From a virus (lineage: Duplodnaviria > Heunggongvirae > Uroviricota > Caudoviricetes), in IMG/VR virus record IMGVR_UViG_2703718835_000005: 3,888 nt of DNA. One strand, given 5' to 3'. Within the stretch, counting starts at the first letter, position 1. Each line of letters opens with the position of its first letter. This document shows, one piece after another, positions 2,345 to 3,094 of the stretch. The notes beneath the pieces are model-generated. The model ran no database searches. It was not told the origin of the DNA and worked only from the letters and a program-made list of their open reading frames with translations. The position numbers and the translations under genes were made by a program.

Positions 2345-2376
2345 TTCGATTCTGAAATACATCAGAGGCATTGACC

Positions 2377-2403
2377 ATGTTTGATTACCAAGTTTCCAAA
2401 CAT
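2377..2403 (-). promoter_or_regulatory. CII-type operator: inverted repeat ATGTTTG (2377-2383) / CAAACAT (2397-2403), half-site centres 20 bp apart; candidate CII-activated establishment promoter pE reading leftward toward cI
   Basis: Seen in sequence: perfect 7-bp inverted half-sites separated by 13 bp (two helical turns centre to centre); the left half-site is the cII start codon itself (ATG TTT G). From my recollection of phage 186, CII binds ATGTTTG half-sites spaced two turns apart at pE. No good -10 is visible leftward (weak TATTTC, complement of 2354-2359), which fits an activator-dependent promoter. Confidence 0.55.
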
Positions 2404-2893: not shown

Positions 2894-3094
2894 ATGCTGA
2901 CGAAAGAACCATCATTTGCATCGCTGCTGGTAAAACAAAGTCCGGCAATGCACTACGGTCACGGCTGGATCATGGGTGAGGATGGTAAACGCTGGCATCC
3001 GTGCCGTTCGCAAGATGAATTATTGGCAGAACTATCAACGAAAAAACGGGGGAACAAATGGCTATTGAAGGCGCTGCGGCGACTGTTCCATTAA
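2894..3094 (+). CDS. Small early-operon protein, 66 aa (in the position of phage 186 fil); function unknown
   Basis: Seen in sequence: ATG at 2894 is 8 nt after the cII stop (TGA 2884-2886), with GAGG (2885-2888) 5 nt upstream. Translation MLTKEPSFASLLVKQSPAMHYGHGWIMGEDGKRWHPCRSQDELLAELSTKKRGNKWLLKALRRLFH. The GTG at 2864 used by the ORF track would overlap the end of cII and has no RBS. The fil assignment is by synteny only. Confidence 0.5.
   Translation: MLTKEPSFASLLVKQSPAMHYGHGWIMGEDGKRWHPCRSQDELLAELSTKKRGNKWLLKALRRLFH

Follow-up and report, generated by a model that had tools for sequence, protein, structure and literature searches.

A predicted CII operator in the first codons of cII of a 186-like Escherichia coli prophage, orthologous to the CII site at pE of phage 186

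The 27 bp at positions 2377–2403 of the analyzed DNA very probably form the operator for the prophage's own CII protein and thereby supply the upstream activation element of a leftward establishment promoter that is orthologous to pE in phage 186. The sequence from 2375 to 2405 reads ccATGTTTGattaccaagtttcCAAACATcc and holds the perfect inverted repeat ATGTTTG-N13-CAAACAT, whose 7-nt arms are 100% complementary and centered at 2380 and 2400. The initial annotation of this DNA had described exactly such a repeat with half-site centers 20 bp apart, and the positions of both arms confirmed it. For 186, the element as such has been annotated and described in print before, and what is described here is, judging by its sequence, an orthologous copy in a heteroimmune prophage. 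The case rests on the observed identity with the 186 site, on constraint beyond coding need, on co-variation with the recognition helix of CII, and on a −10 hexamer that is conserved in position.

The whole stretch of DNA that was analyzed, referred to as the window, comprises 3888 bp and covers the lysis–lysogeny switch region of a 186-like (Eganvirus-type) prophage. The window shares 98.4% identity with an E. coli HS prophage, and at least 80% of the window was covered in 542 of 5,426 complete E. coli genomes, strain HS among them. The order int, cI, pR, apl-like gene, cII, fil is that of the 186 type, and all features are collected in Table 1. The apl-like product resembled 186 Apl only weakly. 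The small open reading frame between int and cI is a hypothetical gene in the E. coli HS annotation, and 186 has no gene at this place, its cI and int abutting each other. The hydrophobic N-terminus and several cysteines of its product suggest a small secreted or membrane protein, and the gene may be a "moron" for lysogenic conversion, carried on the pE/pL transcript. At the other end of the window, fil and the DUF5347 gene overlap by 37 nt in different reading frames, at the place where 186 has overlapping fil and dhr.

Table 1. Coordinates of genes, promoter elements and predicted CII half-sites in the 3888-bp window.
Feature	Position	Strand	Basis or remark
int	1–1032	minus	
Small ORF (63 aa) between int and cI	1221–1412	minus	PHROG 6000, function unknown, E = 3e-34
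cI, immunity repressor	1428–1997	minus	Pfam Phage_CI_repr, E = 2.7e-33; Phage_CI_C, E = 2.4e-27; RefSeq
pR-like early lytic promoter, TTGACG-17-TATGTT	2022–2050	plus	Promoter scan; placement as 186 pR
apl-like gene (73 aa, Cox/Apl-type)	2123–2344	plus	PHROG 575 "Cox-like excisionase and repressor", E = 6e-31
Predicted pE start, A	2342	minus	7 nt past the −10, within the apl stop codon
Predicted pE −10, CAGAAT	2354..2349	minus	22 nt downstream of the proximal half-site; cross-locus position comparison
Predicted pE −35 position, TGGTCA	2377..2372	minus	4/6 matches to TTGACA; placed by position only
cII, transcriptional activator by homology (169 aa)	2377–2886	plus	Pfam PF06892 Phage_CP76, E = 4e-42
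Predicted promoter-proximal CII half-site, ATGTTTG	2377–2383	plus	Identical to the left end of the annotated 186 site
13-bp spacer, ATTACCAAGTTTC	2384–2396	plus	cII codons 3–7
Predicted promoter-distal CII half-site, CAAACAT	2397–2403	plus	Identical to the 186 half-site
fil	2894–3094		Pfam Phage_186_Fil
Genes 3′ of fil: DUF5347	3058–3399		
Genes 3′ of fil: DUF2732, TraR-like zinc-finger protein			

With regards to phage 186, GenBank entry U32222 annotates a "protein_bind CII, activate pE" feature at 23435..23462, which corresponds to the first 28 nt of the cII coding sequence (23435..23944). The feature is contained in pE, annotated as a leftward promoter at complement 23400..23462. The 186 sequence at this site is ATGTTTGattttcaggtttcCAAACAT. 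The window has the same two half-sites at the same 13-bp spacing, and the two sites differ by three substitutions in the spacer. In both phages, the site occupies the first 27 nt of cII in the same orientation relative to apl, pR, and cI, and the half-sites lie at −38 and −58, positions that are published for 186 pE and predicted in the window. The initial annotation had pointed to a likeness to the CII sites at pE of 186, and the comparison with the annotated pE region bore this out, as the site starts at the first base of cII and falls inside pE there as well. According to Hao et al. (2019, PMC6593788), the inverted repeat bound by 186 CII has its arms at −38 and −58 of pE, separated by two helix turns, and the basal activity of this promoter is negligible whereas its activated form is strong (5 to 1140 units). 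Work on the 186 CII operator and pE further includes Neufing 1996, Shearwin & Egan 2000, and Murchland 2014, as cited in PMC6593788, and pE is the only CII-activated promoter of 186 (Murchland et al. 2020, PMC7708051).

The cII ATG was placed at 2377–2379, in agreement with the RefSeq coding sequence in E. coli HS (2377–2886), and is preceded by a Shine–Dalgarno sequence, AGAGG, 8 nt on its 5′ side. The encoded protein is 69% identical to 186 CII in an alignment that starts from residue 1. It also matches the PDB entries 6VLI, 6VPE, and 6VMH ("Regulatory protein CII") with E = 2e-65, the first 20 residues of the PDB chains preceding the match. With RefSeq, the Shine–Dalgarno sequence, and the alignments to 186 CII and the PDB chains in agreement, the start codon is secure, which upheld the earlier reading of the left half-site as the opening of cII. 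The proximal half-site thus consists of codons 1 and 2 (ATG TTT) plus the first base of codon 3, with its center at the predicted pE position −38, and the distal half-site of the third base of Ser-7, AAA (Lys-8), and CAT (His-9), with its center at the predicted −58. That an activator should have its operator in its own first codons is supported by homology with the 186 site. Over the helix-turn-helix stretch compared, the window CII differs from 186 CII by one substitution; T38I lies in the recognition helix of the window CII. The residues V36 and Q37 are those mutated in a published helix-turn-helix cII− allele (PMC7708051).

Perfect 7-nt inverted repeats within 40 nt are common in the window, where 16 pairs were found, and a generic repeat is therefore unremarkable. 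The half-site ATGTTTG alone is not enriched either (3 found vs. 1.05 expected in the window). The full pattern ATGTTTG-N13-CAAACAT occurred once in the window and in 0 of 200 dinucleotide-preserving shuffles. The repeat is significant because it is identical to a known 186 site and conserved, not because it is an inverted repeat. Two other candidates for CII sites in the window were rejected. At 694–720, inside int (GCGTTTATCTCGATAGTGGGCAAACAT), one perfect CAAACAT half-site is paired with a partner carrying three mismatches at the correct 13-bp spacing, which is at chance level (0.38 expected; 12 of 200 shuffles with at least two matches), and 186 has a single promoter of the CII-activated kind. 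Over the −10 of pR, ATGTTTA (2046–2052) and CAAACGA (2069–2075) have centers 23 bp apart instead of 20.

Conservation was followed in 160 loci encoding CII relatives, of which 80 came from species-representative genomes (54–99% amino acid identity); the remaining 80 were taken from viral contigs closely related to 186. The conservation in related prophages, on which the first reading had been made to depend, was found: the repeat is kept at the cII start in almost all of approximately 155 related loci, and the spacer length of 13 bp is constant throughout them. Shearwin and Egan reportedly found that a half-site spacing altered by even 1 bp impairs binding. For the comparison of synonymous sites, 112 cII genes with pairwise nucleotide identities below 97% were used, giving 108 degenerate codons at which the amino acid is conserved. 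Since the loci were searched with degenerate back-translations, no bias arises at synonymous sites. Only codon 2 (TTT, 105 of 105) and codon 8 (AAA, 103 of 103) were represented by a single codon in 100% of the genes. Both are inside the half-sites, and they rank first and second of 108, with CAT at codon 9 in fourth place (94%), while the mean frequency of the commonest codon was 0.67. Elsewhere in cII, the commonest codon was used in 51–89% of the genes for other Phe positions and in 87–92% for other Lys positions. Four codons with synonymous freedom lie in the half-sites, and the chance that both top ranks fall among them is approximately 0.001 by our own arithmetic. Selection on translation initiation could partly account for the synonymous conservation at codons 2–3.

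These data bear on the idea that the repeat is a mere by-product of selection on the N-terminal residues of CII (MFD…SKH) and has no function at the DNA level. The repeat is located wholly within coding sequence, the N-terminal residues are conserved, and the abundance of 7-nt inverted repeats in the window points in the same direction. We nevertheless regard this explanation as highly improbable, since no codons of the gene are held as strictly as TTT and AAA in the half-sites, the two arms change together in one clade despite the amino acid cost, and the identical half-sites and spacing belong to the annotated CII site of 186.

The clade in question comprises seven loci (L063, L064, L068, L069, L070, L071, and L073, with the cII start at locus position 1501, or 60 in L063), in which the recognition helix reads KPHTLYNKL as opposed to NVQTLRNKL. 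In 7 of 7, the half-sites are ATGTTAG on the left and ATGTGA(G/C) on the right (reverse complement). Position 6 is thus A instead of T in either arm, a change that entailed the amino acid substitutions F2L and K8S. All loci with Q37 and LRNKL at residues 39–43 (Q[TVI]LRNKL) retain nTGTTT(G/A/T), except for two with a degenerate distal arm, ATGCTGA in L010 and GTGGTTA in L060. The co-variation of helix and half-sites comes from a single clade and consequently represents one evolutionary event, which, from the sequences, looks like a natural change in operator specificity.

A DNA inverted repeat and an RNA hairpin co-vary alike, and base pairing would also survive the paired T-to-A and A-to-T change of the variant clade. 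Another explanation considered was that the pR RNA forms a hairpin which hides the cII AUG and regulates translation, in place of CII binding or alongside it. Taken alone, the 27-nt segment folds into a 7-bp hairpin of −3.5 kcal mol−1 (z = −2.16), but in an 81-nt context this hairpin is missing from the minimum-free-energy fold, which is no better than that of shuffled sequences (z = −0.40). Moreover, an AU-rich stem of 7 bp is marginal for a 13-nt loop, a T/C or G/G mismatch interrupts the stem in the variant clade, and the distal arm starts with C, T, A, or G without compensation. Together with the annotation of the 186 site as protein-binding, this makes a translational hairpin quite unlikely, and binding by CII stays the preferred reading.

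The operator would act on a promoter core located on the cI side of the cII ATG. Of 38 distinct upstream sequence clusters, which represent unrelated modules, 34 have a −10-like hexamer (nAnnnT with at least 4/6 matches, read on the minus strand) in this region, 21–23 nt past the proximal half-site; no other −10 offset occurred in more than 5 of the 38. In the window, this hexamer is CAGAAT, and TGGTCA is found 17 bp upstream of it, adjoining the proximal half-site. A start 7 nt after CAGAAT puts the half-site centers exactly at the predicted −38 and −58. Based on the −10 comparison and on the end of the 186 pE feature at 23400, the pE start would lie near 2342. A consensus promoter scan of positions 1900–2500 called pR and not pE, which scored 8/12 at a threshold of 9. 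A weak consensus score is expected for an activator-dependent promoter, and we infer the pE core from the position of its elements.

For 186 itself, TACAAT (positions 2420–2425 of locus L001) was first a candidate for the −10, but the half-sites would then fall at approximately −27 and −47. It was dropped in favor of TAAAGT, because the latter fits the published −38 and −58 as well as the annotated pE end at 23400. TAAAGT is located 21 nt from the proximal half-site, compared to 22 nt for CAGAAT in the window, and at the −35 position the window has 4/6 consensus matches, whereas 186 has 2/6. With a −35 nearer to the consensus and a shifted −10, the basal activity and the CII dependence of the window promoter could differ from those of 186.

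The location of the operator over the cII start, with the cII Shine–Dalgarno sequence inside the pE spacer, might also fit a site that serves mainly negative autoregulation, in which CII on its own start codon would block pR-derived polymerase or cII expression instead of activating a leftward promoter. For 186, however, the modest inhibition of pR was attributed to pE-dependent interference, mainly polymerase collisions, and a CII roadblock on pR transcription was contradicted (PMC6593788). The constant distance of the −10 from the operator in 34 of 38 modules likewise argues for a promoter, and we give a mainly autoregulatory role hardly any credence compared with activation of pE.

Further repeats were observed around both promoters. 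A perfect 9-bp inverted repeat, TTTCAGAAT-N24-ATTCTGAAA (2316–2324 and 2349–2357), spans the apl stop codon, and its right arm holds the predicted pE −10. A near-copy of its motif, the palindrome ATTCAGAAT, is present at 1631–1639 inside cI. These two places, roughly 300–390 bp on either side of pR, may be likened to the CI flanking sites FL and FR of 186. The 9-bp motif is not enriched (13 matches vs. 17.7 expected) and is absent at pR. A 186-like FR (ATTCAC-N5-GTGAAT, which lies over the 186 pE −10) is absent, TTCAC-N(1–12)-GTGAA having no match in the window; the repeat overlapping the predicted pE −10 is unlike it in sequence. Other immunity modules have inverted repeats of their own that coincide with the pE −10 or follow closely downstream of it, as in loci L030 and L038. 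Just downstream of the pR −10 (TATGTT, 2045–2050) is the center of an 18-nt imperfect inverted repeat, GATCGTATGTTTATGGTG / CACAAAATACAAACGATC (78% complementary, 2040–2077), and the short repeats GTGAAC / GTTCAC and AGTGAA / TTCACT occur around pR. The 2040–2077 repeat and these short repeats are candidate CI or Apl operators for the immunity type of the window.

The nucleotide similarity of the window to 186 begins at 2376, one base 5′ of the cII ATG. To the left of this codon, the pE core, apl, and cI belong to a different, largely non-homologous immunity module. When the window was compared with the related loci by blastn, the cII segment began at 2371–2377, that is, within 6 nt of the ATG, in 131 of 155 loci and exactly at 2376 in 103, although many of these 131 junction loci (among loci L001–L161) are close 186 relatives and the counts are not independent. 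The CII operator is thus on the conserved cII side, and the pE −10 and start are on the variable apl/cI side. Since similarity starts at the cII ATG, activator and operator would be inherited as one unit. We tentatively propose, as a possibility that we would not yet favor, that having the operator within the opening 27 nt of cII serves as a linkage device in a mosaic family, with pE being split across the recombination junction and reconstituted at each module swap, and with the KPHTLYNKL clade as an operator-specificity variant. If true, each exchangeable apl/cI immunity module would independently keep its −10 at 21–23 nt.

Taken together, the following circuit is proposed on the model of 186, the source from which CII binding and activation are carried over, as are the transcription start and the role in physiology. 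After infection, pR would transcribe apl and cII rightward. The CII helix-turn-helix would bind both ATGTTTG half-sites, two helix turns apart and centered at −38 and −58, and recruit RNA polymerase to an otherwise weak core made up of TGGTCA (2377..2372), CAGAAT (2354..2349), and a start near 2342. The resulting transcript would run antisense through the whole of apl, cross pR, and enter cI and int, supplying the first repressor and integrase and meeting pR transcription head-on. The initial annotation had likewise proposed a leftward promoter antisense through apl into cI that converges on pR; gene order, strands, and homology with 186 support the former, and the convergence, which agrees with gene order and strands in the window, is documented for 186, where pE and pR interfere transcriptionally (PMC6593788). 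A widespread E. coli prophage would accordingly carry an intact 186-type establishment circuit with a CII operator whose half-sites and spacing are those of the characterized one, and quantitative models of 186 CII and pE are therefore probably transferable to it. The frozen synonymous operator bases, the fixed distance from operator to −10, and the clade in which helix and operator have changed together may be of modest use for engineers and modelers of 186-type switches.

In comparison with other known systems, CII and pRE of phage lambda share the circuit logic and geometry with the window, as analogues and not as homologues. In lambda, too, the CII site falls within the opening codons of cII itself: codons 4–8, read as the reverse complement (GCAAACAAACGCAA), have the form TTGC-N6-TTGC, and these TTGC repeats are the lambda CII site. 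The proteins are unrelated, as the window CII matches Pfam Phage_CP76 only. Furthermore, the direct tetranucleotide repeats of lambda straddle the −35, whereas the inverted 7-mers of the window are two turns apart and upstream of it; neither a lambda-family CII protein nor TTGC-N6-TTGC at the −35 was found in the window. The leftward promoter driven by lambda CII reads into cI and is antisense to cro, which corresponds to apl; lambda CII also activates pI and paQ, in contrast to the single CII-activated promoter of 186 (PMC7708051). P2, with its C repressor and Cox, comes from a related phage family (Peduoviridae); like the window, it has early and lysogenic promoters that converge and an excisionase-repressor of the Cox/Apl type. 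P2 is, however, without CII and an establishment promoter (PMC7708051), whereas the window has cII, a two-domain 186-type CI, and fil, so that the earlier assignment to a 186-type and not a P2-type switch holds.
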